A stretch of 64,000 nt of DNA from NCBI GenBank assembly GCA_965226555.1, contig CBDDDG010000001.1, positions 64,001 to 128,000 on the forward strand, in the 5' to 3' direction. Source of the stretch: Salinispira sp. (GTDB lineage: Bacteria; Spirochaetota; Spirochaetia; DSM-27196; Salinispiraceae). Shown here one piece after another: positions 36,573 through 52,551 of the stretch; within the stretch, counting starts at the first letter, position 1, and each line of letters starts with the position of its first letter. Under the pieces are notes generated by a model. That model saw nothing but the letters and a program-made list of their open reading frames with translations, was not told the origin of the DNA and did no database searches. A program made the position numbers and the translations under genes.

Positions 36573-37948
36573 ATCATGCTCCTCGGGTCAAGAATTGAAT
36601 TGAGTTCATCTTCACTGATAATTTTCTCTTCAAGAACAAGATCGCGAATTTTTTTCTTCTCCCTGTATGCCCGGTAGGCCAGCGTACTCGCCCGATCATA
36701 GCCGATTTTCACAGCCAGCGGAGTAACCATGGCGAGGCTCCAGTCTATCCAGTAACGGCAGCGTTCGCTGTCGGCCGCGGCGCCGCGAATGGCCTTGTCG
36801 GCCAGTGTGTTGCAGGCCTTTGTGAGTATGGTAATGGAGCTCAGCACTTCATAGGCTATGAGGGGGTTCATCATGTTCAGTTCGAGAGGCGCGTTCTGTC
36901 CTCCCATGGTAACGGAAATGACCTTACCGTGAACATGGGCAGCAACCTGAATGATCATTTCCGGAATAACAGGGTTCACCTTCCCGGGCATAATGGAGCT
37001 GCCGGGCTGAAGGCTGGGAAGAAGAATTTCACCGAGGGCGCCGCGGGGACCGCTGGCAAGAAGGCGCAGATCGTTGGCAATTTTCATAAGCGATGTTGCA
37101 AGAACATTCACTGCCCCCATAAATGCTACCTGAGCGTCTCGGGCGGCAATGCCTTCAAACTTGTTAGCGGCAGGAACAAAGCCTATGCCGGTATCGGCGG
37201 CAATGCCGGAAATTGCGCGGTCGGCAAAGTCCGGGTGAGTGTTCAGACCCGTACCAATTGCCGTACCGCCGAGGGGAAGTTCTTCCATGTCAGCAAAGCT
37301 GTTGCGGATGCGCGCCGCGGCCTTTTGAATTTGCAGGGCGTACACAGCAAATTCCTGACCGAGGGACATGGGTACGGCGTCCTGAAGGTGGGTTCGCCCG
37401 AGTTTGAGTACCTCGGAAAATTCATCGGCCTTTGCCGTGAAGGCATCGGCGAGGTTGGTAAGTGAGGCGAGCAGGCCATCCGCTTCAACGCGGTTGGAAA
37501 TGTGCAGGGCTGCGGGGATAACGTCGTTTGAGCTTTGTCCGCGGTTGACGTGATCATTCGGATGTACGGGTTTCCGCATGCCGATGGGTTCGCCGAGAAT
37601 TTCATTTGCGCGGTTGGCGATGACTTCGTTCGCGTTCATATTGCTGCTGGTGCCGCTGCCGGTCTGAAACACATCAACCGGAAAATGGTCATTCCATTTT
37701 CCCTCATACACCTCTGTTGCGGCCTGTATAATGGCCTCCGCACGTTCCGGCTCCAGAAGTCCGAGCTCCCGGTTCGCAGCGGCGGCATTCTTCTTAATGA
37801 GGGCGATTGCCTGAATCATTGCCGACGGCAGGACAATGCCCGATATCCTGAAATTCTCTACAGCCCGCTGTGTCTGCGCGCCCCAATAGGCCCATGCGGG
37901 AATTTCAATATCTCCCATGCTGTCTGACTCAATTCTTTTTTCATTCAT
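36569..37948 (-). CDS. fumC: Class II fumarate hydratase
   Basis: QTGSGTSSNMN, GRTHLQDA, GSSIMPGKVNP. Confidence 0.93.
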   Translation of the reverse strand: MNEKRIESDSMGDIEIPAWAYWGAQTQRAVENFRISGIVLPSAMIQAIALIKKNAAAANRELGLLEPERAEAIIQAATEVYEGKWNDHFPVDVFQTGSGTSSNMNANEVIANRANEILGEPIGMRKPVHPNDHVNRGQSSNDVIPAALHISNRVEADGLLASLTNLADAFTAKADEFSEVLKLGRTHLQDAVPMSLGQEFAVYALQIQKAAARIRNSFADMEELPLGGTAIGTGLNTHPDFADRAISGIAADTGIGFVPAANKFEGIAARDAQVAFMGAVNVLATSLMKIANDLRLLASGPRGALGEILLPSLQPGSSIMPGKVNPVIPEMIIQVAAHVHGKVISVTMGGQNAPLELNMMNPLIAYEVLSSITILTKACNTLADKAIRGAAADSERCRYWIDWSLAMVTPLAVKIGYDRASTLAYRAYREKKKIRDLVLEEKIISEDELNSILDPRSMI

Positions 37949-38863
37949 AAAAATTTTTGCTCCTGAAAGTTTCCGCTATATGGCAAGCATTTCATATAGT
38001 TCTCCATAAATTCCCAATTCGGGTTGCCATCCTCATTATAAGGATATTTGCCTTCTCCGTACTCCTTTATTTCCTTCTTTGTAAAACTCTTTGAACCTTT
38101 TATTTCAAATAGATCTTTCAAACTAAAATACTGCCACTTATGAAGTGGAATAATGGGTGAGCCATGCCTTCTTAATGCTGTCCCATTTATTATCATAATT
38201 TGCCCTGCCTCCCACTTTCATATTATAAAAACCATCATTTTTCCAGTAGGCAAAATATGACTTGTACCCTTCTCTGTGTGGTTCCTTGGCTTTCATAACA
38301 ATTACACACGTTGTTGTACCTGCCTTTCATTAAATTACTTCTCCCATCGCCATGAATGTACATATTGGAGCATAGGAGCGAATAAATATCGTGTTGGAAT
38401 TCAACACCTACTATTTGACTTTGTTTAATGTGCCTTTCTTTTTCTTCATTGCCACCAGCATCTCTAATCATGTTTTTCATGGCAGATATTAAGAATCCAC
38501 CGGTACCCGTGCAGGTATCTAAAACCACAGAAGCCTTGTTCACATAGGCTATTTCAGAAAATAATTCTGTTATATGGGGAGGAGTCAAAACTATGCCCAA
38601 ACCTTTGTCGTTATTGGCACATCGTAAAAATTCTATATAAAACTGCCCGAGGGCATCGAAGTACTTATATTGTTATCATCGCCGCTAACAGCAATGGCAA
38701 GAACATCGTATTCTTTAGACAAAAAAGAGGCATAGAGCAAAACCCCATCGACAGCATAACTCCCATATTGTTTTCTATTCTGGCTTTCGTGTTGAGTTAC
38801 ACTGGCCTTACATTCAACAACAATGATTACATGTACATTTTCCGTTATTCTCTCGTTAGCCAT
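37945..38863 (-). pseudogene. Decayed restriction-modification locus (N6-adenine methylase/nuclease subunit plus specificity subunit; BcgI-like by resemblance)
   Basis: Fragments MANERITEN..VECKA..YAVDGVL; GLGIVLTPPHITELF, DTCTGTGGFL, NMYIHGDGRSN; WQYFSLKDLF...PNWEFMENYMK; far shorter than intact subunits. Confidence 0.8.
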
Positions 38864-38935
38864 TTATCTCCCTCTGCGCTGAATGGTCCACAAGAGAAAC
38901 TTTTGCAAAGCACAATTTTCAGTAGCAAAACTTTC

Positions 38936-38975
38936 CAAGAGTATAACAGAAACCTTCATTAATGCAAAAGTTTTT
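38936..38975 (-). promoter_or_regulatory. 40-bp direct repeat (left copy); promoter-like, facing the RM remnant
   Basis: 35/40 identical to 42467-42506; minus strand reads TTGCAT-N16-TATACT with a TG extended -10. Confidence 0.7.
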
Positions 38976-40119
38976 ATCTGAATTTTATTGATGATAAAAA
39001 CGATGCAGCCGATTCTAATCCTTTCCAGAAAAAGTCATTCTCATTAATATTGTGGAAAATAGTAGAAAAGTTCTTCATTAATTGACGCCTGTGATCTTTT
39101 TCCTTCTCTTTTTGGATGATTTTAACAGCTGGAGGATTATTTCTCAATGATACAGCGCGCAGAAAAATATCGCGAATATCAATATCGGAAACGGGGAGCG
39201 AATAGCCAATAAAGGTAATTTTATGAGCATTTTGAATTGCATGGAGTACCTCCGTTTGTATCGATTGAAAACTCCCAATAAATTTATGCTTATGAAAAGT
39301 TGGCGTTACAATAATCGGCTGCAATGCAACACTGCGCTTCGATAAAATTTGTCGATCCTCATCGGATTCAAAAAGAATTGGAATTTCTGTAGATTGCTGA
39401 GTATTCTGCCCTGTCGATTCTTGCAAAATTTCTTCTGATTTTTTATCTGAAAAACAATAGATGCACGTTTCATATTCTAGGGATTGAGAATCTACTCTGA
39501 ATAAACGCTCGCATGCCGGACACAATCGCCAATCGATGGAGCCATGAGGCTTGAGTACTGTTATTGGTTTTTGATTCGAATCGGTATCTGTTCCATTTTT
39601 CATTACTATTGGGATGGTATCTCCAAAATGAATATCATACTCATAATCTTGCTTGAGAAGCATTTCCAATAGCCAATCCCAATTCATGCTAATAAAGGTT
39701 ACCTGTACATTTTCTTGAATAATCTGACTCATTAATGAATGAAACGGGCTCGGATCAATATCATGGCTCATCTGTTCTGTTAAGAGAATGAGAATGAGTG
39801 AATTTAAAGACGTTTTAATTTCTAATAATTTTTGCGGAGTATAAGTTCCTAAATTTCTTTCTGCTGCAATTGCTGAATCAATACTGCTATAGACATCTTC
39901 CAATAATATCTGCTCCTCAATAGTTTGATTACCGTAAACTGCTCGCAAAAATTTCACAACATCATGTACTAAAGGAGCAGATTCAATGCTTACGCGTTCA
40001 CGAAAATCATCTGCCAGAATTTTAGTAAGCAATTGTTCCTGAAGAGGAAATCCCATCGCGCGGGAGAATCCGGCACCGATAATTACCGTGTGTGTTTTTG
40101 CTGGATGAGTTTTATCCAA
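38974..40119 (-). CDS. SIR2-like domain protein with Zn-ribbon insert
   Basis: IIGAGFS, SMNWDWLLE, KPHGSIDW, CPAC...CIYC, IVTPT, FIGYSLPVSD. Confidence 0.88.
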   Translation of the reverse strand: MDKTHPAKTHTVIIGAGFSRAMGFPLQEQLLTKILADDFRERVSIESAPLVHDVVKFLRAVYGNQTIEEQILLEDVYSSIDSAIAAERNLGTYTPQKLLEIKTSLNSLILILLTEQMSHDIDPSPFHSLMSQIIQENVQVTFISMNWDWLLEMLLKQDYEYDIHFGDTIPIVMKNGTDTDSNQKPITVLKPHGSIDWRLCPACERLFRVDSQSLEYETCIYCFSDKKSEEILQESTGQNTQQSTEIPILFESDEDRQILSKRSVALQPIIVTPTFHKHKFIGSFQSIQTEVLHAIQNAHKITFIGYSLPVSDIDIRDIFLRAVSLRNNPPAVKIIQKEKEKDHRRQLMKNFSTIFHNINENDFFWKGLESAASFLSSIKFR

Positions 40120-41417
40120 ATTTTTAGGTGCTCCGTAGATGTATATTCAGATTTTTTATTCCATTCAATGAAATCATGCAGGTTTTTCATATTGATCTTA
40201 TCCTCTACAATCTCAGAAATTTTATTCAACACAAAATGCACTTGATTATTCCACAATGTTTCAGATGTCGGCATGAGCTTTTCAGTATTGGGGATTGCTT
40301 TTCTCGCCCCATAATGTTCGGCAAAAACTGTTTGAGTAAATTTCCCTGGGGACAATATTTCATGGCATTTCAAGCAGCCGCACACTTTCTTAGTATAGGC
40401 TGAATCAAATTCCTTTCTCATTTGCAGAATTGCATCGACAATTTCAAACCTCATTCGCTGTTGCGCGTACGGCAAATAAAATTTGGCAGTCGGTAGTCCT
40501 CCTCCAACCGGCAATACGCTGCGATATTCTCCATAACCCGGCCCATGAGCAATACCATTCAGTCGTTTTTCTTTTTTCAAAAGCGTAGAAAACCCGCCTC
40601 CATATAAATTAATGACTTTTTTACCTTTATAGTTAAAATGTATGAGCAATTCCCGATACGCTTGCAGGTATTTTTCATTTTGAGAAGTCTCGTCAAAATT
40701 ATTAATCCACAACAGCAATGTGGAAATTTTTGATGTGGAATACACGTCCTTAATCTGCTTCATTTTATCTGGGTCTAATAAAACACTCTTTTCTACAATT
40801 ATCTCCAAAGCAGTCTCTATATCGTCATTTCTTGGATTTTTGTCATACTCTTGAATAATCGTTTTGTTTATTTTTAACGCTTTGTCAAAATCTGCAAGAG
40901 TCATGTATAAGCAGGGCAGTATTATAAATGTTGGTTTAGGAGAAATATCGGATTCTTCTTCGTAATCAGAATAACCTTTTTTTTCCATTGCTTCTTGGGA
41001 CAGGCTGTTTTGAATATAATGTGTTTGAAATTCCAGAACATTTTTCGTGAGGTCACTAATATTGGCTGCTATATCGGAGAATTGGAGGGCTTGCTTGGTT
41101 TTGATAATTTGTTGGCCTAAGCGACCAAAACGCTGCAGTAATTTCTCCATAGATTTCTTTAGAGTCATACTATCTGTGTTCGCGTAGTACTTCAGTGGGT
41201 CTATGGTGAGAACATACGTCATAGGATCAATAAAAAATGAACAGTTTCCGAATGTTATTGTGAGCATTTTGGCAATTGCCGCCGGCGTATGTACGGCAAC
41301 ATTGCCGTTTATTACGATTCCAGTTTTTTTCTGGGAAATATATTGTTTTATTAAAGGTTCCAAGAGAATTTTTTTCTCGTTGTGAGAACCGAATCGGATA
41401 AACTGTTCAGTTTTCAT
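40083..41417 (-). CDS. Uncharacterised ~444-aa protein with C-terminal CxCxxC...H motif (TGT-like fold suspected)
   Basis: FFIDPMTY, LYGGGFS, HGPGYGE..GGG...FYLP, VCGCLKC...VH; overlaps both neighbours. Confidence 0.7.
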   Translation of the reverse strand: MKTEQFIRFGSHNEKKILLEPLIKQYISQKKTGIVINGNVAVHTPAAIAKMLTITFGNCSFFIDPMTYVLTIDPLKYYANTDSMTLKKSMEKLLQRFGRLGQQIIKTKQALQFSDIAANISDLTKNVLEFQTHYIQNSLSQEAMEKKGYSDYEEESDISPKPTFIILPCLYMTLADFDKALKINKTIIQEYDKNPRNDDIETALEIIVEKSVLLDPDKMKQIKDVYSTSKISTLLLWINNFDETSQNEKYLQAYRELLIHFNYKGKKVINLYGGGFSTLLKKEKRLNGIAHGPGYGEYRSVLPVGGGLPTAKFYLPYAQQRMRFEIVDAILQMRKEFDSAYTKKVCGCLKCHEILSPGKFTQTVFAEHYGARKAIPNTEKLMPTSETLWNNQVHFVLNKISEIVEDKINMKNLHDFIEWNKKSEYTSTEHLKIWIKLIQQKHTR

Positions 41418-41847
41418 TATGCTGCCTGCATAATTTAATATCATCGAATATTTCTAAAAAATTCTTTCTTAAAAATTCATTATGCATTCTTGATTTTTTG
41501 TCGACAATCTTTTCTATTTCTTTCTTATCTTGATCCCAAATATAAAATGAGAGATCAAATTTGTTTATTTTTTCTTCAATTGTTGTTGTATTGCGCGGGA
41601 CAGTTGCCTTCGGCATAATGAGAATTGCCTTGTCGACAACACAGCTGTGATCCTTCAATTGTTCAATAGCTCTCTTCCAATTCTTTAGTTTTACTTCAAT
41701 AGAAATTAAGGAATTGTCCTTTTGCAAAAATATGTCTACAATACGCGACATGAGGGGAATTTCCCTATAAACCTTGTACGTTTTTCCGTCCAACGGTTCA
41801 TGGGTAAAATACCTAAGCAATTCCGTTTGAACTTTTGCCTCCGTCAC
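41407..41847 (-). CDS. Small PD-(D/E)XK nuclease-fold protein (146 aa)
   Basis: TEAKVQ...YREI...IVDIF...SIEVKLKNWKRAIEQ; GTG start overlaps the upstream TGA (GTGA), GGAG RBS. Confidence 0.72.
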   Translation of the reverse strand: MTEAKVQTELLRYFTHEPLDGKTYKVYREIPLMSRIVDIFLQKDNSLISIEVKLKNWKRAIEQLKDHSCVVDKAILIMPKATVPRNTTTIEEKINKFDLSFYIWDQDKKEIEKIVDKKSRMHNEFLRKNFLEIFDDIKLCRQHNEN

Positions 41848-42464
41848 AACGTATATTCTCCCAATACTTGGTTTTTTATTAATGAATTTTTCGTAGAATC
41901 GGGATATCGCGTGTAAACATAGTGCAGAATTGTCTGTAAGGTTTTGTGTATAATGCTTGTTTTGAATCGTACGAGAATTTCCCGTTGGGGTTCGGTTAAA
42001 TTTGTCCATGAAAACCATTTCTGAGGCGAGGTAATAACTTTCTTTCCTTCTCCGCTAAGCGTATATTTTTCAATTTCATGCGTATAATCATTAATCCCTA
42101 AATTATCATTTTCAAAACCCCTCATATTCGATTCCCAGACATCATCGGCTCTACCTATTTGAGAATAAGAAATGCTTATAGTAAGCATATGTTTCGCGTT
42201 TAAAAAATCCACTGCTTCCAACACGTCTGTGCTGAATGGTCCAAAATTATAGGCTTCAAAATCAAAAGAAGAAATATTGTCAGACGGATTCAGGAATTTC
42301 TGCTGTACTTCCTGCTCAAAAAGGTACATCATCTTCATTAATCGCGTTCTGCCAGTAATTGGATATGCGATATTTTGATCCAGATCGCCGTATAAGGTGA
42401 GATGCACCGGCGCATAAAGCAGCAGGTGTAAAATATGAACGCATTTATAATTTTTCTTCGGCAT
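41844..42464 (-). CDS. Panacea/SocA (DUF4065)/YwgA-like protein
   Basis: ITGRTRLMKMMYL, FDFEAYNFGPFS, YVYTRYP..S.IK motifs. Confidence 0.7.
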   Translation of the reverse strand: MPKKNYKCVHILHLLLYAPVHLTLYGDLDQNIAYPITGRTRLMKMMYLFEQEVQQKFLNPSDNISSFDFEAYNFGPFSTDVLEAVDFLNAKHMLTISISYSQIGRADDVWESNMRGFENDNLGINDYTHEIEKYTLSGEGKKVITSPQKWFSWTNLTEPQREILVRFKTSIIHKTLQTILHYVYTRYPDSTKNSLIKNQVLGEYTL

Positions 42465-42466
42465 GA

Positions 42467-42506
42467 CAAGAGTATATCAGAAACCTTTATTTATGCAAAC
42501 CTTTTT
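42467..42506 (-). promoter_or_regulatory. 40-bp direct repeat (right copy); probable leaderless promoter of the four-gene operon
   Basis: TTGCAT-N16-TATACT with TG extension, 6 nt before ATG 42464; no SD sequence. Confidence 0.7.
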
Positions 42507-42654
42507 GATACAGTCTTCTACCCACATAGCATTCACCCCGCATTCAAGAGCAATCCGACCTTACCATATTGTATTCATCATTAACAATGATAGCACTGGG
42601 ACGATATCGCCATACATGCCTTTTCTTTTGTTTTCCAAATGTATATACTGCGAT

Positions 42655-42724
42655 AAAACTTTGCTACTGAAAACTTTGTTACTGGAAATTGTGCAAGCAC
42701 AATTTTCCAATGCAAACGTTTCTA
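42655..42724. repeat. Family-A palindromic repeat
   Basis: ctggaaattgtgcaagcacaattttccaatgcaaacgtttct, directly upstream of the reductase RBS. Confidence 0.85.
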
Positions 42725-42746
42725 TTACAAAGAATAGGAGATATAT

Positions 42747-45292: not shown

Positions 45293-45361
45293 TCGTGAGG
45301 TCATCGAAAGGGCATCGCGAACTATGGGAGCCCTCTCTTTTTGGGTGCGAAACGCTGGCTA

Positions 45362-46621
45362 ATGATACAGACAATTTTTAAGTATGGCATGAGTGAATTT
45401 TTTGCGAAGGGCCTGAATGTTATACTCCTATCGCTCGTATTACCCGCGCTGCTCGACATTGAAAGTTACGGACAGGTCGCTATCATTATTGCGATTGAAA
45501 TGATTTTTCTTGTATTACTGACCTGTAATCAAAACACCGTAATGCTCCGCTTATATAGTTCTTTCAAAGGAAAACTATTCCATCTCTATAGTGTTTCATT
45601 TGGAATTGTTCTAATAATGGCTGCTGTTTTACTCATTTTGTACGTTGCGTTGTTTGCAACAAATATATTGAACTTTGAGAATATTAAAAATTATACAATT
45701 CTCTTTATTATTATTGCGGCTGCATTACAAGGACAATTTGCGTTATATCTTGCCTATCTTCGAAAGGAAAACAGGGTCGACGAGTACGGCATTAGTCGAA
45801 TATGTTATCAGATAGTTAAATTCTGTATAGTTGCGGGAGGAGCTGTAATACTCAGAGATGTCACAGCGTACCCCCTCGGCATTTTGGTATCGAATATTGT
45901 CGTATTTGTGTTTATCGGAGTTAGAAATCGGCATCGTTTTACAACTTTCAGAGTACATTTTTCAGAAATTTTCACTAATGTGAAATCGGTTTTTAAAGAC
46001 AATATGCATATTGCGCTTCCTCTGACCATAAGTTCGCTTATTACATCAATGTATACCTTTATTGATCGATTCATACTTCAGTATTTTCTCACTATGCAAC
46101 AGGTAGGAGTCTATAATTTTGCGCTTACCTTAGGAAATACGATCTATTTTTTTGTTTACGTTCTCAGCCTATCCTATGTTCCGGTTATATATGAAAACAA
46201 GGAGTATGATCATCATACCGCTAAGCTCTTACGTACATTTCTTATTGTCGCAATGCTTACTTCCCTGGGCGCAGTCGTTGTAATATATTTTTTCATATTT
46301 CCATTTACGCTGCAATTTGTTCCATCGGACTATGAGGATGGGCGGGTAGTTCTCCTTCTTGCATCCGGTGCAATGGTTATTAATACACTAACCTTGTATG
46401 GCACCTATACCTTGATCAGCCTGCGGAAAGTGATACTAATACCCATTCTTACACTTGGCGCATTAATTATTAAAGTAATTCTGAACTATTTTTTTATTCC
46501 ATTGTATGGAATTAATGGTTCAGGTATGGCAGTCATTCTCAGTGAATTTTTGCATGGGCTTTCGTTTATAATTGTCGCTCGGGTACTTGTAAACAGAAAT
46601 CGAAGCAAGATCAGTTTGTAG
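45362..46621 (+). CDS. wzx: Polysaccharide flippase
   Basis: About 12 TM segments; IDRFIL...VGVYNFA, LNYFFIPLYGING. Confidence 0.85.
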   Translation: MIQTIFKYGMSEFFAKGLNVILLSLVLPALLDIESYGQVAIIIAIEMIFLVLLTCNQNTVMLRLYSSFKGKLFHLYSVSFGIVLIMAAVLLILYVALFATNILNFENIKNYTILFIIIAAALQGQFALYLAYLRKENRVDEYGISRICYQIVKFCIVAGGAVILRDVTAYPLGILVSNIVVFVFIGVRNRHRFTTFRVHFSEIFTNVKSVFKDNMHIALPLTISSLITSMYTFIDRFILQYFLTMQQVGVYNFALTLGNTIYFFVYVLSLSYVPVIYENKEYDHHTAKLLRTFLIVAMLTSLGAVVVIYFFIFPFTLQFVPSDYEDGRVVLLLASGAMVINTLTLYGTYTLISLRKVILIPILTLGALIIKVILNYFFIPLYGINGSGMAVILSEFLHGLSFIIVARVLVNRNRSKISL

Positions 46622-46672
46622 TGTGTAATGAAATGAGAAACGATGAATTATTTTCTGGTTGAATTCGCCCGC

Positions 46673-46701
46673 TTGTAAAAAAAATTATGGACAAGTATAA
46701 T
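46673..46701 (+). promoter_or_regulatory. Probable sigma70 promoter of the nonulosonate/polysaccharide operon
   Basis: TTGTAA-N17-TATAAT. Confidence 0.6.
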
Positions 46702-46736
46702 AGAATTATGCAAAAATTTCTACAAGGAGAATCATT

Positions 46737-47612
46737 GTGGTAAAAGTTGTCGGTGAAATTGGGTGCAATCATCAAGGAAAAATGGACATTGCAAAAGAGC
46801 TCATTAAAATAGCGGCTGTTTTTTGCAAATGTGACTACGTTAAGTTCCAGAAGAGATCAAATAAGGAACTTCTAACTGTAGAAGAGTACAATGCTCCCCA
46901 CCCTGTTCCGAAGAACTCTTATGGAAGAACCTATGGTGAGCACAGAGAATTTCTTGAATTCAACTTAGATCAACATAAAAAACTCCAACATTTGTGTAAT
47001 GAATTTAATATCGGATACTCGACATCTGTATGGGATATGACTTCAGCCCGAGAAATGTCTACCCTCAATTGCGATTTTATCAAAATACCTTCTGCCTGTA
47101 ATTTAGACTATACAACCCAAAAATATCTCATTGAAAATTTCCATGGTGACATTCACGTTTCCACAGGAATGACCACAAAAAACGAAATTGAAGCGATTGT
47201 TCGTTTTTATGAAGAAAACAATGCCGCCCATCGACTTGTTTTATATGTATGCACTTCAGGATACCCTGTGAGTTTTGAAGATGTTTGTTTGTTGGAAATT
47301 ACTCGCTTTAAAAAACTTTACGCCGCGAGGGTTAAGGAAATTGCCTTCTCAGGGCATCATCTTGGAATTGCTGCGGATATAGCCGCAGTCACTTTGGGAG
47401 CTGCCTGGATAGAAAGACACTACACGCTTGACAGGGCATGGAAAGGAACTGACCACGCGGCATCCTTAGAACCCGATGGTTTAAGAAAACTCACAAGAGA
47501 CATAAAAGCTGTCGAAAAGACCCTTACCTACAAGAATAAAGATATTCTGGACATCGAAAATGTCCAGCGAAGAAAACTCAAAAGAACCCGGGAGAATTTT
47601 GCCCATGCTTAA
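46737..47612 (+). CDS. neuB: NeuB-family nonulosonate (probably 9-phosphate) synthase, short form
   Basis: EIGCNHQG, VKFQKR, IKIPSA, FSGHHLG, IERHYTLDR, GTDHAASLEP; 291 aa with no C-terminal SAF domain. Confidence 0.9.
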   Translation: MVKVVGEIGCNHQGKMDIAKELIKIAAVFCKCDYVKFQKRSNKELLTVEEYNAPHPVPKNSYGRTYGEHREFLEFNLDQHKKLQHLCNEFNIGYSTSVWDMTSAREMSTLNCDFIKIPSACNLDYTTQKYLIENFHGDIHVSTGMTTKNEIEAIVRFYEENNAAHRLVLYVCTSGYPVSFEDVCLLEITRFKKLYAARVKEIAFSGHHLGIAADIAAVTLGAAWIERHYTLDRAWKGTDHAASLEPDGLRKLTRDIKAVEKTLTYKNKDILDIENVQRRKLKRTRENFAHA

Positions 47613-48777
47613 AAAAATCGTAGCTCTCATTCCACTTAGGGGGGGATCAAAAAGCATTCCTCACAAAAATATCAAAGTAATAGCTGGGAGACCCCTCTTT
47701 TTCTGGACAACGCGAGCCGCTGTTGAATCTAACGTTTTTTCTGATGTTTATATATCCACAGATTCAAACGAAATTACGGAATGTGTTCGCAAATATTTTA
47801 ATGAAACAGAAGTTACCGTGCTAAAGAGAGCCGATTATTTGGCAACCGATGAAGCCTCGACAGAAGCCGTTATGCTCAATTTTGCCAGCAAATACGATTT
47901 TACTGATATATGTCTTATACAGGCAACATCTCCCATCACAAGTGTTCAGGATATAAAAAACGCCTTCCTGTTATATACGCAAAACAAATTCGACTCCCTT
48001 TTTACAGCCGTACAATTTAAACGATTTTTATGGGGGTATGATTCCAACCCCATTACCTATGATTTTCGCAACCGCCCGCGAAGACAGGAATTTAAAGGCT
48101 GTCTTATGGAAAACGGATCGTTTTATTTTACCCGGCGCGAAATTTTGTTGAACGAGAAAAACCGTCTCGGAGGGAAAATTGGCTATTATGTTATGGCTGA
48201 AGAAACAGCCGTTGAAATAGATGAACCGAGCGATTGGGATATTGTTGCTCGCCTCATCCAAAAAAACTCTCTTCTCTATTTTAAACGTTCCCTAGAACAC
48301 ATTAGGGCCATAATTTTCGATGTTGATGGAACCATGACCGATGCGGGAATGTATTATGGCGAAACCGGTGAAACTCTCAAAAAATTTAACACACGCGATG
48401 CTGAGGGAATCGCTTGTTTAAGAGAACAGGGAATAAAAATAGGTGTTATTACGGGAGAGAACAGCCCTTCAGTCACCTCAAGAATGAATAAACTACAAAT
48501 TGAATGCTATGAGAAGGACGTTTCTAACAAATTGCCAGTATTCAATAAAATGATACAGAAATGGGGATTGTTGCCTTCTCAGGTTGGCTATATGGGCGAT
48601 GACATTAGTGACAAATTATGCATGGAAGCTGCGGGTTATAGTTTCTGCCCCCAAGATGCCGTTGAGAATGTAAAACATCTTGCGGGCTTTGTCTGCGCTG
48701 AAAAATCGGGAGAAGGGGCGGTAAGAGAAGTGGCCAATGTAATACTAAAAAACATATCGCCTGCCCAATTGTCATAA
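47605..48777 (+). CDS. neuA: CMP-nonulosonate synthetase fused to a KdsC-like HAD phosphatase
   Basis: PLRGGSKSIPHKNIK, QATSP, ENGSFY; C-terminal FDVDGTMTD, KKFNTRD, YMGDD, GEGAVRE. Confidence 0.9.
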   Translation: MLKKIVALIPLRGGSKSIPHKNIKVIAGRPLFFWTTRAAVESNVFSDVYISTDSNEITECVRKYFNETEVTVLKRADYLATDEASTEAVMLNFASKYDFTDICLIQATSPITSVQDIKNAFLLYTQNKFDSLFTAVQFKRFLWGYDSNPITYDFRNRPRRQEFKGCLMENGSFYFTRREILLNEKNRLGGKIGYYVMAEETAVEIDEPSDWDIVARLIQKNSLLYFKRSLEHIRAIIFDVDGTMTDAGMYYGETGETLKKFNTRDAEGIACLREQGIKIGVITGENSPSVTSRMNKLQIECYEKDVSNKLPVFNKMIQKWGLLPSQVGYMGDDISDKLCMEAAGYSFCPQDAVENVKHLAGFVCAEKSGEGAVREVANVILKNISPAQLS

Positions 48778-48778
48778 C

Positions 48779-50035
48779 ATGAAAAAAATTATCTATTTCG
48801 ATTCCTGGACACTGGGAATTCAGAATTATTGTTCCATTGACAGACTACTGCGAAACGACTGTCAGACTCTCCTTCTCCATGTAGAAAGTCTGGTAGTTCC
48901 CTATTTCGCTTCTCATGTTGACACCTCCTGGTATAGAGCTGAAAAAGAACAAAGAATCTCCGGTATCCATTGTAAGGATATTTCCGCGTACAACGGAATG
49001 ACAATTGCGGACATTCTGAAAACAGAAGCCCCCAATGTTGTTGTGCAGCTAAATGTGTCGCATCTTCAGAACCGAATGGTAACAGCAGCCTGCAAGCGTC
49101 TGGGTATAAAGGTAGTGTTTATGATGCACGGCGCAATCCGCAACCTGAATGAGGCCGAGTCGCTTGCTACCAGCCTGACAGAATCGCATAAACATAATAT
49201 TTCGCTTAAAGTCAAAAAAATCCGTAAATATATCAGGCTTCTGCGTGAATACCACGCGGCTTCAGGGAAAATCAGCGATACCCTAAACATTGCCCGACAA
49301 GTATTTTCTTCACCGTTTAAATTCACATGGAATCCAGAGCCTCATTTTTCATTAAATGTCGACAAATCTTTCGTCTATACAATTGCAGACATTCATTCTC
49401 TGTCGGAAGTATTTGGCATTCCATTAAAAAATAGTATGGCTGTCGGGAATCCAAAACTGGATCCGATATTGTCTGAACCGCATCAGAAAACACAACGGCA
49501 GTCTGATAAACTGAGGCTTTTATATATTGAAGGATCGGTCAATGATCTGAAGATGATGGATGATTCACAGCAAATGAATATTCTTTCATTTCTGAACGAA
49601 GCGGCAAAGCGAAACAAACTTGAATTTGTTATTAGACTCCACCCCGGTACAAACCGAAAGAATTTCATTCAGAAATTTGGTTCCGAGTATCAGTATTCGC
49701 CAGCAGATGAATCGTTGAAAAACTCCCTCCTTAATGCAACAATAATTACCGGGCATCACTCAACAGCAATGCTGGAAAGTATTGCCTACCGCATACCGAC
49801 CATTTCCCTGTTGTGGTTTGGAGGGGCACTCCAGCGCATTGTTGTTAATGAACATGATGTGGGAATTGTCAGACAAAAGAGCTCATTTGAAGAAAAACTG
49901 CGGGAGTTTCTTAAAAACGGCTGGATGCAGGAAGAAACCCGCAAAACATTATTTCCCCGGGGTGACATACCCGCGGCAGAAAATATTGTTGCGGAAATTA
50001 GGAAATTGGCAGACACAGAATCTGCCGTATTATGA
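48779..50035 (+). CDS. Putative nonulosonate/glycosyl transferase (GT-B like)
   Basis: MMHG, VGNPKLD, RLHP and STAMLES motifs; follows neuA. Confidence 0.55.
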   Translation: MKKIIYFDSWTLGIQNYCSIDRLLRNDCQTLLLHVESLVVPYFASHVDTSWYRAEKEQRISGIHCKDISAYNGMTIADILKTEAPNVVVQLNVSHLQNRMVTAACKRLGIKVVFMMHGAIRNLNEAESLATSLTESHKHNISLKVKKIRKYIRLLREYHAASGKISDTLNIARQVFSSPFKFTWNPEPHFSLNVDKSFVYTIADIHSLSEVFGIPLKNSMAVGNPKLDPILSEPHQKTQRQSDKLRLLYIEGSVNDLKMMDDSQQMNILSFLNEAAKRNKLEFVIRLHPGTNRKNFIQKFGSEYQYSPADESLKNSLLNATIITGHHSTAMLESIAYRIPTISLLWFGGALQRIVVNEHDVGIVRQKSSFEEKLREFLKNGWMQEETRKTLFPRGDIPAAENIVAEIRKLADTESAVL

Positions 50036-50135
50036 AAAAATTAATTCTGGCCTATGGTTTCAGCGAAGGTATAGCGAAAAGCTTGAACATGCGGATAATG
50101 GCGCGCGGAACGCAGAGCATTCCAAAGGAATAAGT

Positions 50136-51374
50136 ATGAAAAAAATACGCGGTCTACCAAAACTAAGGAATAACTTTAACCTTAAACTATTTTACATAGT
50201 GTGTCTGATCCCTGTCAATCTGTTATATAATGTAAATTATCTTTTCGCGTCTTTATATATCCGAAAACGATTCAGAAAAATTAATGATATTATTCTGCGT
50301 TTTTTTGTTGTATATGTTCCAATATGTTATTTGCTTGGATTTCTTACCGCGATATCTTTTAGTGTTTATGCCATAGGGAGGCATTTTATTAGTTTTGGCA
50401 TTTACTTTATCTTCCTGTGCCTGCTGTTTATTGAGTTCAACGAGAAAAAAATACGTATATTACTGGACGCGGTTATTATTATTGCTGTCATGTATGCTTC
50501 ATGGGTGCTATTAGTAATACTGTTTAATCCTCACGTTGCCATGAGTATTAACGATATTCGAAGCCTAAAAGAAATTCTGAGACTTTATCATATCTGGGGA
50601 TGGCCGCAATATAATGTCCCGGTGCTCATTTTTGCCCTGCTCCTGCTCCTGCCAAAGCTTTCGAGGAAAGTTACGCACTATTTTGCAGTTATAGTATTAT
50701 TGACTGTCATTATCTTTACCGGACTACGCGCGGCATATTTGGCACTGTTTGTTGGTTTTTTTTCGTATATCATAGTAAATATCTTAAAAATGGCAATGCT
50801 AAGATCATTTGAGAAACGCTTCCTGCATGTTCTGTCCGGGGTATGTATGTTTGCTCTTATAGCTTTATTATTTCTTTGGAACACAGCATTTTTTGACAGT
50901 GTTCTTTACCTGATTGAACGGGGAATTACTACATTGGAGGATTTTTTTACAAGGGGTCCTCCTACATTAAGATCAGATAACTTGAGATATGAACACTGGA
51001 GATTCGCTCTTAACCAGTTATGGAACACGAACTCCCTTCTCCATGGAAGCGGATTTATCGGAATATATGTATGGAATAATAATACGTTTGGAAGTCTTGA
51101 CAGTCAGTTCATAAATGATCTATTCCGTATGGGGTTAATTGGTACGTGTTTTGTGCTCTATTGTTTTGCCAAAATAATACGGTTTTTTTACCGATATGAT
51201 ACTCGCATTTTTTCATGTATGCTTGCCTTGTTGACGTATGGTTTTTTTCACACAACATATCAATCGCCATACATTGGCTTTATATTTTTCGCGCTATTGA
51301 GTTTTGCAGATTCCCAATCGCCAACGAAAGGAAAACGCAAGCATCGAGTATTACAGCGGGAGGAGAATATATGA
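50136..51374 (+). CDS. wzy: O-antigen polymerase/ligase-family membrane protein
   Basis: Multi-TM protein; TGLRAAYL, SDNLRYEHW, GLIG motifs; cluster context. Confidence 0.7.
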   Translation: MKKIRGLPKLRNNFNLKLFYIVCLIPVNLLYNVNYLFASLYIRKRFRKINDIILRFFVVYVPICYLLGFLTAISFSVYAIGRHFISFGIYFIFLCLLFIEFNEKKIRILLDAVIIIAVMYASWVLLVILFNPHVAMSINDIRSLKEILRLYHIWGWPQYNVPVLIFALLLLLPKLSRKVTHYFAVIVLLTVIIFTGLRAAYLALFVGFFSYIIVNILKMAMLRSFEKRFLHVLSGVCMFALIALLFLWNTAFFDSVLYLIERGITTLEDFFTRGPPTLRSDNLRYEHWRFALNQLWNTNSLLHGSGFIGIYVWNNNTFGSLDSQFINDLFRMGLIGTCFVLYCFAKIIRFFYRYDTRIFSCMLALLTYGFFHTTYQSPYIGFIFFALLSFADSQSPTKGKRKHRVLQREENI

Positions 51375-51405
51375 AAGTACTGTTATCTGTACAGGAGGCA
51401 AGAAG

Positions 51406-52551
51406 GTGAAAAATAGTCATTGCGTGCTCATACATGGTTTGAATTCACGAACGGGCGGAGGCAAGGTAATTCTGTATAATTTTCTTTCATATTTGTACAA
51501 TGAAGAATCCGGCAACACTAAATATATGTGTCTTGTGCCCAACCTCCATGAATATATGAACTTCGAATGCGCGCACATTACTGTCCGGACTCTTCCGGGA
51601 ATACTACGCAGAAATTTTGTATACCCGCTGGTAAATTCCCGCTTTCTGCCAAGGTATATTAGAAAACATAACATTGATGTTGTTTTTAATTTTTCGTCTG
51701 TTCCAATACCAACCCGCGCCAAGCAAATATTTTATTTTGACTGGCCCTATGCCGCATACATTGATTCTCCGGTGTGGAAAACAATGGATTTTAAGAACCG
51801 CATTACAAGACGCGTGAAGCTGTATTTTTTTAGAAAATATATCCCCTATGTTGATCTGCTCATTTGTCAGACTAATGACATAAAACGCTGTTTGAATACT
51901 CATTATACTATAAAACGCATTGAGGTTATTCCGCCAGGAATTTTAAAGGCGCATTTTTCTCAGAATATGAATACCAATATTGCGCTCCCTGCCGGATATA
52001 AACTGTTTTATCCGACACGATACTATCCGCACAAAAACCTGGAAACATTACTTCCTCTTATTCGCTTAATAAAAAATAAAGAATTGGACATAAAAATAAT
52101 TATTACTCTTGAGAATAATCAGCATTCTGGCGCCCGAAAAATACTCCAGACAATTATGGCAGACAAGTTGGATAAGTACATAATTAATATCGGATACCTT
52201 CCGAGTGAAGAAGTATCTGCGCTATTCCAGTTATGCGATGGATTGCTCATGCCGACATTGCTGGAATCGCATAGTTTGGCGTATATTGAAGCCATGGTTC
52301 ACCGGAAACCTATTTTTACCAGCGATTTTGGCTTTGCCCGCGAAGTGTGTAAAAATGCCGCAGTGTATTTTGATCCATACAATCCGTCCGATATTCTTGA
52401 CAAAATACTGTCAGTAAAAAACAATACTACCGAACAGCAGAGAATGATTGAGGCCGGGAGTACCATTCTTAAAACTCGACCGACCGCAGATGAAGTACAC
52501 AAAAAATTTGTTACTGCAATTCATTCAATTCTCAGCGAACGCGCCACGTAA
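51406..52551 (+). CDS. Glycosyltransferase family 4
   Basis: YYPHKNL, MPTLLESHSLAYIEAM, AAVYFDP. Confidence 0.88.
   Translation: MKNSHCVLIHGLNSRTGGGKVILYNFLSYLYNEESGNTKYMCLVPNLHEYMNFECAHITVRTLPGILRRNFVYPLVNSRFLPRYIRKHNIDVVFNFSSVPIPTRAKQIFYFDWPYAAYIDSPVWKTMDFKNRITRRVKLYFFRKYIPYVDLLICQTNDIKRCLNTHYTIKRIEVIPPGILKAHFSQNMNTNIALPAGYKLFYPTRYYPHKNLETLLPLIRLIKNKELDIKIIITLENNQHSGARKILQTIMADKLDKYIINIGYLPSEEVSALFQLCDGLLMPTLLESHSLAYIEAMVHRKPIFTSDFGFAREVCKNAAVYFDPYNPSDILDKILSVKNNTTEQQRMIEAGSTILKTRPTADEVHKKFVTAIHSILSERAT

Follow-up and report, generated by a model that had tools for sequence, protein, structure and literature searches.

The TIM-B systems couple barrels of the P4 beta family, which are related to tRNA-guanine transglycosylases (TGTs), to a restriction endonuclease (REase), a sirtuin, a two-transmembrane (2TM) protein and other partners (Li, Burroughs, Aravind; bioRxiv 10.64898/2026.10.19.760177). 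The beta protein of the phage P4 gop-beta-cII locus corresponds to PF14350, and the group includes sce7725-sce7726 pairs (10.64898/2026.10.19.760177). A second report describes gop-beta-cII as a locus that kills the cell when a phage gene triggers it (10.1101/2023.04.06.535777). Judged from these texts, TIM-B and gop-beta-cII are the closest described kind to the subject of this study, a cassette of four overlapping genes (here called A, B, C and S) in a stretch of 64,000 nucleotides from Salinispira sp. (GenBank assembly GCA_965226555.1, contig CBDDDG010000001.1, positions 64,001 to 128,000), which we refer to as the window. The parallel is strong and lowers the novelty of the cassette: both have a TGT-related barrel, a REase and alternative effectors that include a sirtuin and a 2TM protein; B weakly resembles sce7726, and C shares with beta an FFID motif after strand 3 and a final conserved His.

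Our analysis describes a candidate defence system that is real, widespread and, as it appears, unnamed; it is built around a new TGT-fold family and equipped with a swappable effector. It would work like the TIM-B or the Panacea guard systems and, by the tests we ran, appears to be a member of neither. A role of the cassette in defence is probable. We tentatively prefer the reading that it guards against phage by abortive infection, with a core formed by A, B and C that would restrain the predicted toxic fourth protein until infection is sensed.

A conserved core with an exchangeable fourth gene

We sampled 117 loci (37 from genomes and 80 of 91 from metagenomes), of which 23 were cut by a contig end and 94 were callable. 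Both locus scans demanded an exact match to one motif, and the loci consequently sample only part of the C family, for which a profile search returned 1,024 clusters at 50% identity. A, B and C are present together in every one of the 94; at 90% identity of C, 81 of these loci are distinct. The fourth gene encodes a SIR2 protein (S) in 59 loci and a membrane protein, which we call T, in 35; the two never occur together and never are both missing. Four gene orders were found: A-B-C-S (33 loci), C-S-A-B (25), C-S with an inverted A-B pair (1) and A-T-B-C (35). Wherever S is present it comes directly after C, and T without exception comes after A; B directly precedes C in 68 loci, is separated from it in 26, and is co-directional with C in 93 of the 94. 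No SIR2 open reading frame (ORF) was found in the 35 membrane-type loci, 25 of which offer at least 1.2 kb after C. Since 35 of the 94 complete loci have a membrane protein in place of SIR2, the latter is a swappable effector, and the core consists of A, B and C. The sequence-only reading had proposed a four-gene operon; the wide co-occurrence of the genes bears this out, but what is conserved is really a three-gene core with an exchangeable fourth gene.

Five loci (L018, L020, L052, L092 and L112) were classed by hand on inspection, and the T gene of L072 was identified by its reading frames. Two of the counted S-type cassettes are damaged, L020 and L001 (seen again as L043). The latter has an in-frame C-SIR2 fusion of 613 amino acids (L001:4067-5908, also L043), which we rejected as support for a C-S complex and treat as a deletion product or dead cassette because the zinc motif of C and the GAG motif of SIR2 are both lost. 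No long C fusions (843-2405 amino acids) were found, which is weak evidence. At L092:5028-8649, the C-S and A-B pairs face each other on opposite strands with all four genes kept.

On a quick IQ-TREE tree of 79 C proteins, from which duplicates, damaged and short rows were excluded, the T and S labels require at least three changes. Two members of the C-S-A-B clade, L019 (labelled Escherichia coli) and L027 (Bacteroides thetaiotaomicron), stand among otherwise Bacillota-named members, the result of either transfer or mis-binning. Defence islands do gather unrelated genes, and the cassette could in principle be a chance mosaic of such genes; this idea is refuted by the core genes themselves, which occur together in all 94 callable loci, in many phyla and in four gene orders, and we give it practically no credence.

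The SIR2 label given to S in the sequence-only reading is sustained by a match to SIR2_2 (PF13289) above cut-off (E 6e-7). The motifs GAG.S, NWD, K.HGS and FIGYS are invariant in 19 of 19 S proteins; a Cys-rich insert follows the HGS motif, with a second CxxC in 16 of the 19, and Pfam scans of S revealed no extra sensor domain. The best solved relatives are KomC NADases, with a weak match (E 0.002). S is predicted to be a NADase effector. The T proteins have 166-202 amino acids and predicted transmembrane helices; none of 11 scanned gave a convincing Pfam match. Leave-one-out scores of 14.5-92.9 bits for 28 of 29 members (0.7 for the remaining one), which partly reflect shared hydrophobicity, indicate that they are likely one family, and we predict T to be a membrane-disrupting toxin.

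A predicted TGT-fold barrel without the nucleophile

C has no counterpart among Pfam, NCBIfam or PADLOC families, and none of 109 further homologues lies above a Pfam cut-off. Its AF2 model, with a predicted local distance difference test score (pLDDT) of 88.7 and a predicted template-modelling score (pTM) of 0.90, shows a (beta/alpha)8 barrel followed by a TGT-type C-terminal zinc subdomain. All 50 matches listed by Foldseek are TGTs, and the top five of an exhaustive structure search all belong to the TGT family. C aligns with archaeosine TGT (arcTGT) at Z 19.5 over 297 residues (root-mean-square deviation, rmsd, 3.5), with TGT at Z 16.9, QTRT2 at Z 14.9, DpdA at Z 14.1 and Cap10 at Z 12.2; since generic barrels start at Z 12.1, the Cap10 match taken alone is not distinguishable from these. 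Searches of PDB sequences with C profiles gave nothing significant, and hhalign of C against the TGT of its own host gave 0.3%, so that the link to TGTs is a purely structural one. The ESM Atlas returned only unnamed clusters for C, a result of low recognition value. The host's housekeeping TGT (L038:1468-2586) lacks the CxCxxC zinc motif that C keeps.

Among 150 C homologues, the zinc ligands C346, C348, C351 and H394 are kept in 149, 144, 149 and 150 sequences, respectively. D64, which follows strand 3, is present in 146 of them and is the predicted counterpart, by strand order and register, of the base-reading Asp of TGTs. Aromatic residues at positions 68 and 272, which we take to be the counterparts of TGT Y106 and M260, would sandwich a base. 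The guanine-reading Asp of TGT after strand 4 is D156; its predicted counterpart in C is Tyr in 143 of 150 homologues. The nucleophile Asp is D279 in QTRT1 and D248 in Cap10 (10.1101/2025.04.06.647259). At its predicted place in C, positions 290-292 at the end of strand 8, Asp occurs in none of the 150 proteins. Standard transglycosylation by C is therefore unlikely, and on the model C likely reads a ligand rather than swapping bases. The earlier label of a TGT-like zinc-motif protein thus holds for the fold and the zinc site, which the structure searches support, but not for the catalytic Asp, which is missing.

How far C departs from beta can be seen from several features. PF14350 matches none of 123 C proteins (0 of 14 and 0 of 109) and nothing in the genome of the window; no sequence link to C was detected (hhalign 0.4%; best E 0.24-0.6 across hidden Markov models); the CxCxxC zinc motif is found in 144 of 150 C proteins and 0 of 120 beta proteins; and the Asp of the YGD motif at the end of strand 8 is present in 50 of 50 beta proteins and in none of the 150 C proteins, as judged by motif and strand register. 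The beta comparison set stems mostly from one query and does not cover the whole family, and a scan of viral contigs for beta loci found only two weak ones. The partners differ as well: the cassette has an obligatory Panacea-like partner, of which the TIM-B section names none, and its B protein has about 140 amino acids and is co-directional, whereas the TIM-B REase is described there with helical extensions, a C-terminal HeH and, in P4-type loci, a convergent orientation. B did not match the REase of locus L041, T did not match Gop (0.1 bits), and P4 Gop, beta and cII match none of the profiles tried. By the features tested, C lies outside TIM-B; an overlap with the full TIM-B set of its authors may exist.

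This comparison bears directly on a TIM-B-like brake, a possibility we consider rather unlikely, in which C would be an active enzyme and keep the effector silent by constantly producing an inhibitor or a covalent mark, as has been proposed for beta/TIM-B; disruption of C by phage would free the effector, and A and B would be accessory. The shared fold family and partner kinds (REase, sirtuin, 2TM) speak for such a brake, as does the place of S directly after C in every S-type order and the near-invariance of D64, E243 (140 of 150), H291 (139 of 150) and E297 (148 of 150) in C. Yet the position of the YGD Asp is C, S, A or G in C proteins, with no Asp at 290-292 in any of the 150, and supposedly accessory A and B are never dropped in 94 loci, with no Panacea partner named in the TIM-B text.

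Two further immune uses of the TGT fold can be compared with C. In type IV CBASS (Wassarman et al., 10.1101/2025.04.06.647259), Cap10 likewise reuses the fold in defence and keeps a base-reading Asp (D73, the predicted match of D64); unlike C, it retains the nucleophile D248, needed for defence, and has no zinc site, and C shows the reverse. No CD-NTase or QueC-like Cap9 was found among the four genes or 119 flanking ORFs (PADLOC, E<=1e-10). Dpd/BRC systems also employ a TGT-fold protein in a defence context, but they insert 7-deazaguanine into DNA with ATPase and helicase partners (PMC12839542), none of which is found here, where C has no nucleophile.

B, described in the sequence-only reading as a PD-(D/E)XK protein, retains this motif in full: E3, D38, E51, K53 and Q63 are invariant in 35 of 35 homologues of 132-165 amino acids. 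A weak match to sce7726 (NF033832) was found for 8 of the 35, at best with E 3e-6. B is predicted to be a nuclease-like protein. An alternative that we judge unlikely is modification-dependent restriction with a back-up: C would read or excise a modified base in phage DNA, B would cut nearby as the principal line of defence, and the effector would fire only if phage blocks B and C. B directly preceding C in 68 of 94 loci with its nuclease motif intact favours this arrangement; C also keeps the zinc site that Cap10 lost and that aids nucleic-acid binding by QTRT1; defence glycosylases against 7-deazaguanine DNA are on record (10.1101/2025.10.29.685425); and the cassette often adjoins restriction-modification (RM) or BREX genes, which modified phages evade. 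It is opposed by the effector, which seems obligatory since a core without one was never seen (0 of 94), by the 26 loci in which B is separated from C, and by a doubtful guanine specificity, given the Tyr at the predicted D156 position.

The Panacea label for A fared less evenly. PF13274 aligns with A at E 1.2e-3 and 20.2 bits, under the cut-off of 25.7, and among four scanned A homologues it is over the cut-off in one (L010), under it in L001 and unmatched in L004 and L013. In two programs, the best structural match is a chain of 187-188 amino acids of the DarTG complex 7yk3, which is weak (Z 8.0, rmsd 5.0, 141 aligned; Foldseek E 0.01) and, to go by its length, should be the C-terminal domain of DarG. 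This domain reportedly inhibits DarT through mimicry of single-stranded DNA. A also has an acidic insert, found in 34 of 34 aligned homologues, with a net charge of -5 to -14 (median -10; -5 in the window). In its Panacea-like motif and fold, A may thus resemble the C-terminal domain of DarG and the PanA proteins of type II toxin-antitoxin pairs, but the cassette has four genes instead of two and no macrodomain or DarT. Two A homologues carry long N-terminal extensions (L069:3384, 382 amino acids; L004:6114, 309 amino acids), which are possible fusions or wrong starts.

S connects the cassette with Kongming (KomB-KomC), Thoeris and SIR2-HerA, which likewise use a SIR2 effector with NAD-binding motifs. 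In contrast to these systems, there is no HAM1, deaminase, TIR, SLOG or HerA here, and S has a Cys-rich insert and a membrane-protein substitute. KomB sets a precedent for an inactivated enzyme serving as a nucleotide sensor (PMC13434031).

The locus in its genomic setting

The ORF calls agree with the earlier claim of four overlapping minus-strand genes (Table 1), including overlaps of 4 nucleotides between A and B (GTGA), 11 between B and C, and 37 between C and S. The block is also AT-rich as had been claimed, with a GC content of 36.2% for the four genes against 47.2% for the genome. Low GC is not unique to the cassette, as a cluster at 45.5-52 kb of the window also has 34-43%; this second block (45341-52551) contains flippase-, synthase- and glycosyltransferase-like genes and, judged by eye, has the look of polysaccharide synthesis.

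Table 1. Features of the cassette and its immediate surroundings (window positions)
Feature	Coordinates	Strand	Description
Gene A	41844..42464	minus	206 amino acids; Panacea/DarG-C-terminal-like winged helix with acidic wing insert; predicted antitoxin/inhibitor
Gene B	41407..41847	minus	146 amino acids, GTG start; minimal PD-(D/E)XK nuclease-like protein
Gene C	40083..41417	minus	444 amino acids; TGT-fold TIM barrel with CxCxxC...H zinc site; predicted sensor
Gene S	38974..40119	minus	381 amino acids, TTG start; SIR2 family, predicted NADase effector
Direct repeat, upstream copy	42467..42506	minus	40 nucleotides; promoter-like site 42499-42471; ends 2 nucleotides before the A start codon
Direct repeat, downstream copy	38936..38975	minus	promoter-like site 38968-38940; overlaps the S stop codon; precedes the decayed RM gene
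Decayed Type IIG-like RM locus	37945..38863	minus	neighbour, outside the system

The assertion that the block has one promoter had to be abandoned: there are two promoter-like sites, one in each copy of a 40-nucleotide repeat that brackets the four genes almost to the base. The copies are identical at 35 of 40 positions, each holds a TTTGCA-17-TATACT site, and copies of at least 33 nucleotides exist only at these two places in the whole genome; taken alone, the promoter scan does no better than chance (19 sites found against 18.2 expected). The neighbouring gene had rightly been taken for a decayed RM locus, consisting of a Type IIG methyltransferase-REase piece (PADLOC REase_MTase_IIG, E 1.6e-25) and a specificity-subunit piece (Methylase_S, E 1.4e-5) in fragments spread over three reading frames. 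We infer that the cassette was inserted at the promoter region of this RM locus, duplicating that region.

By recombination, the promoter-containing repeat could permit the cassette to be gained or lost precisely. In the sequencing runs searched, no contig of the joined form, with the cassette lost between the repeats, was seen. One contig spans 36500-42704 without differences, from a run that may be the window's own source. The runs listed as holding the region include no RNA. For a close strain, two runs cover both flanks and parts of the RM remnant and nothing at 39010-42272; as no contig joins the flanks, an empty site is not demonstrated in this strain. An imperfect palindrome of about 50 bp, resembling repetitive extragenic palindromic (REP) elements, lies on both sides of the island (38890-38945 and 42640-42730); across the genome of 2.98 Mb, its core pattern is found 392 times.

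The distribution of the cassette is patchy. Named hosts belong to Bacillota, Verrucomicrobiota, Planctomycetota, Chloroflexota, Pseudomonadota, candidate phyla and others; C was found in none of 60 searched relatives of the window's host, and no relatives of C were found in the viral contigs searched. The patchy spread, the low GC content and the inferred insertion next to the decayed RM locus, where a promoter-like site is duplicated, would also suit a selfish addiction module, a multi-part toxin-antitoxin system that secures its own maintenance and that of its neighbours and plays no part against phage. We hold this to be improbable: two genes suffice for addiction, which leaves a conserved zinc TIM barrel and a nuclease in 94 of 94 loci unexplained, and the viral contigs gave no match.

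The surroundings of the cassette are enriched in defence genes. Of 119 flanking ORFs, 20 match PADLOC models, whereas none of 53 other window ORFs does (Fisher p 0.0005; with five promiscuous matches dropped, 15 remain and p is 0.006), and PADLOC-positive flanks occur in 12 of 35 genome loci, with matches to BREX, RM types II, IIG and III, HNH and PDC candidates (E<=1e-10). At L008, a BREX operon harbours the cassette between its brxC and pglX genes. In keeping with the view that the combination is not a named system, PADLOC 2.0, run on all four proteins, recognized none: B and C have no model at E<=1, A has only a partial match to PDC-M19A (68 residues of a 294-position model, E 2.7e-7), and S matches only generic SIR2 models. 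A literature search found no paper on this gene set, with DefenseFinder and most subscription journals outside its reach. Azaca was considered and dropped, as it is listed in the literature with the nuclease-NTPase systems and no PADLOC match was obtained.

Control of the effector and its implications

For the preferred abortive-infection guard, we propose a particular wiring, put forward a shade more hesitantly than the guard itself, in which A restrains the effector and B and C sense. A would neutralise the effector by binding to it directly; Panacea antitoxins act in this way on unrelated and diverse toxins, some with transmembrane helices (PMC8832971, PMC10440598). C, with its remodelled base pocket, and the nuclease-like B would recognise phage nucleic acid or a modified base or nucleotide. 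This recognition, or interference of the phage with B and C, would release A, and NAD+ loss or membrane damage would then stop the cell before phage production. Two unrelated effectors in one slot, no ligand-sensing domain and no effector-less core make direct control by a promiscuous antitoxin the simplest arrangement, and direct binding by A would explain how two effectors without a shared sensor domain are served by one core.

Several observations weigh against this guard. S follows C and not A in all S-type orders, and C may be the partner of S. The Panacea score of A is under the cut-off in the window and its structural match weak (Z 8.0); many PadR and MarR matches come next (Z 6-7), and A could be a DNA-binding regulator. 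Its acidic insert could equally inhibit the nuclease B or be irrelevant. Given the conserved E243, H291 and E297, C may be an enzyme, and the mapping of its residues on TGT follows strand order and motif register, not residue-level superposition. The enrichment of defence genes was measured against one unmatched window and on related loci, which are not independent of each other, and 23 of 35 loci have no PADLOC match within two ORFs. Lastly, the tree is a quick one, in which the branch of the window's C is long and its placement unsure.

Collectively, C represents a widespread protein family without a Pfam model, in a compact and complete candidate system. With C, the TGT fold would have been recruited into immunity once more, in a form that is apparently distinct from DpdA, Cap10 and beta and combines a zinc site with loss of the nucleophile. 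The cassette would also place a Panacea-like antitoxin in a four-gene system, a size omitted by the Panacea survey, which excluded conserved operons longer than three genes. The SIR2/membrane swap amounts to a natural experiment that may show how unrelated effectors are governed by a single sensor core. A bolder version, which we regard as unlikely, has C as a TGT-fold receptor, a former transglycosylase that lost its nucleophile and now reads a modified base or nucleotide specific to phage, such as a derivative of 7-deazaguanine; together with B it would trip a Panacea-type switch to which any toxin can be connected. If this were true, an uncharacterised family of about 1,000 clusters would make the anti-restriction chemistry of phages a trigger of abortive infection.

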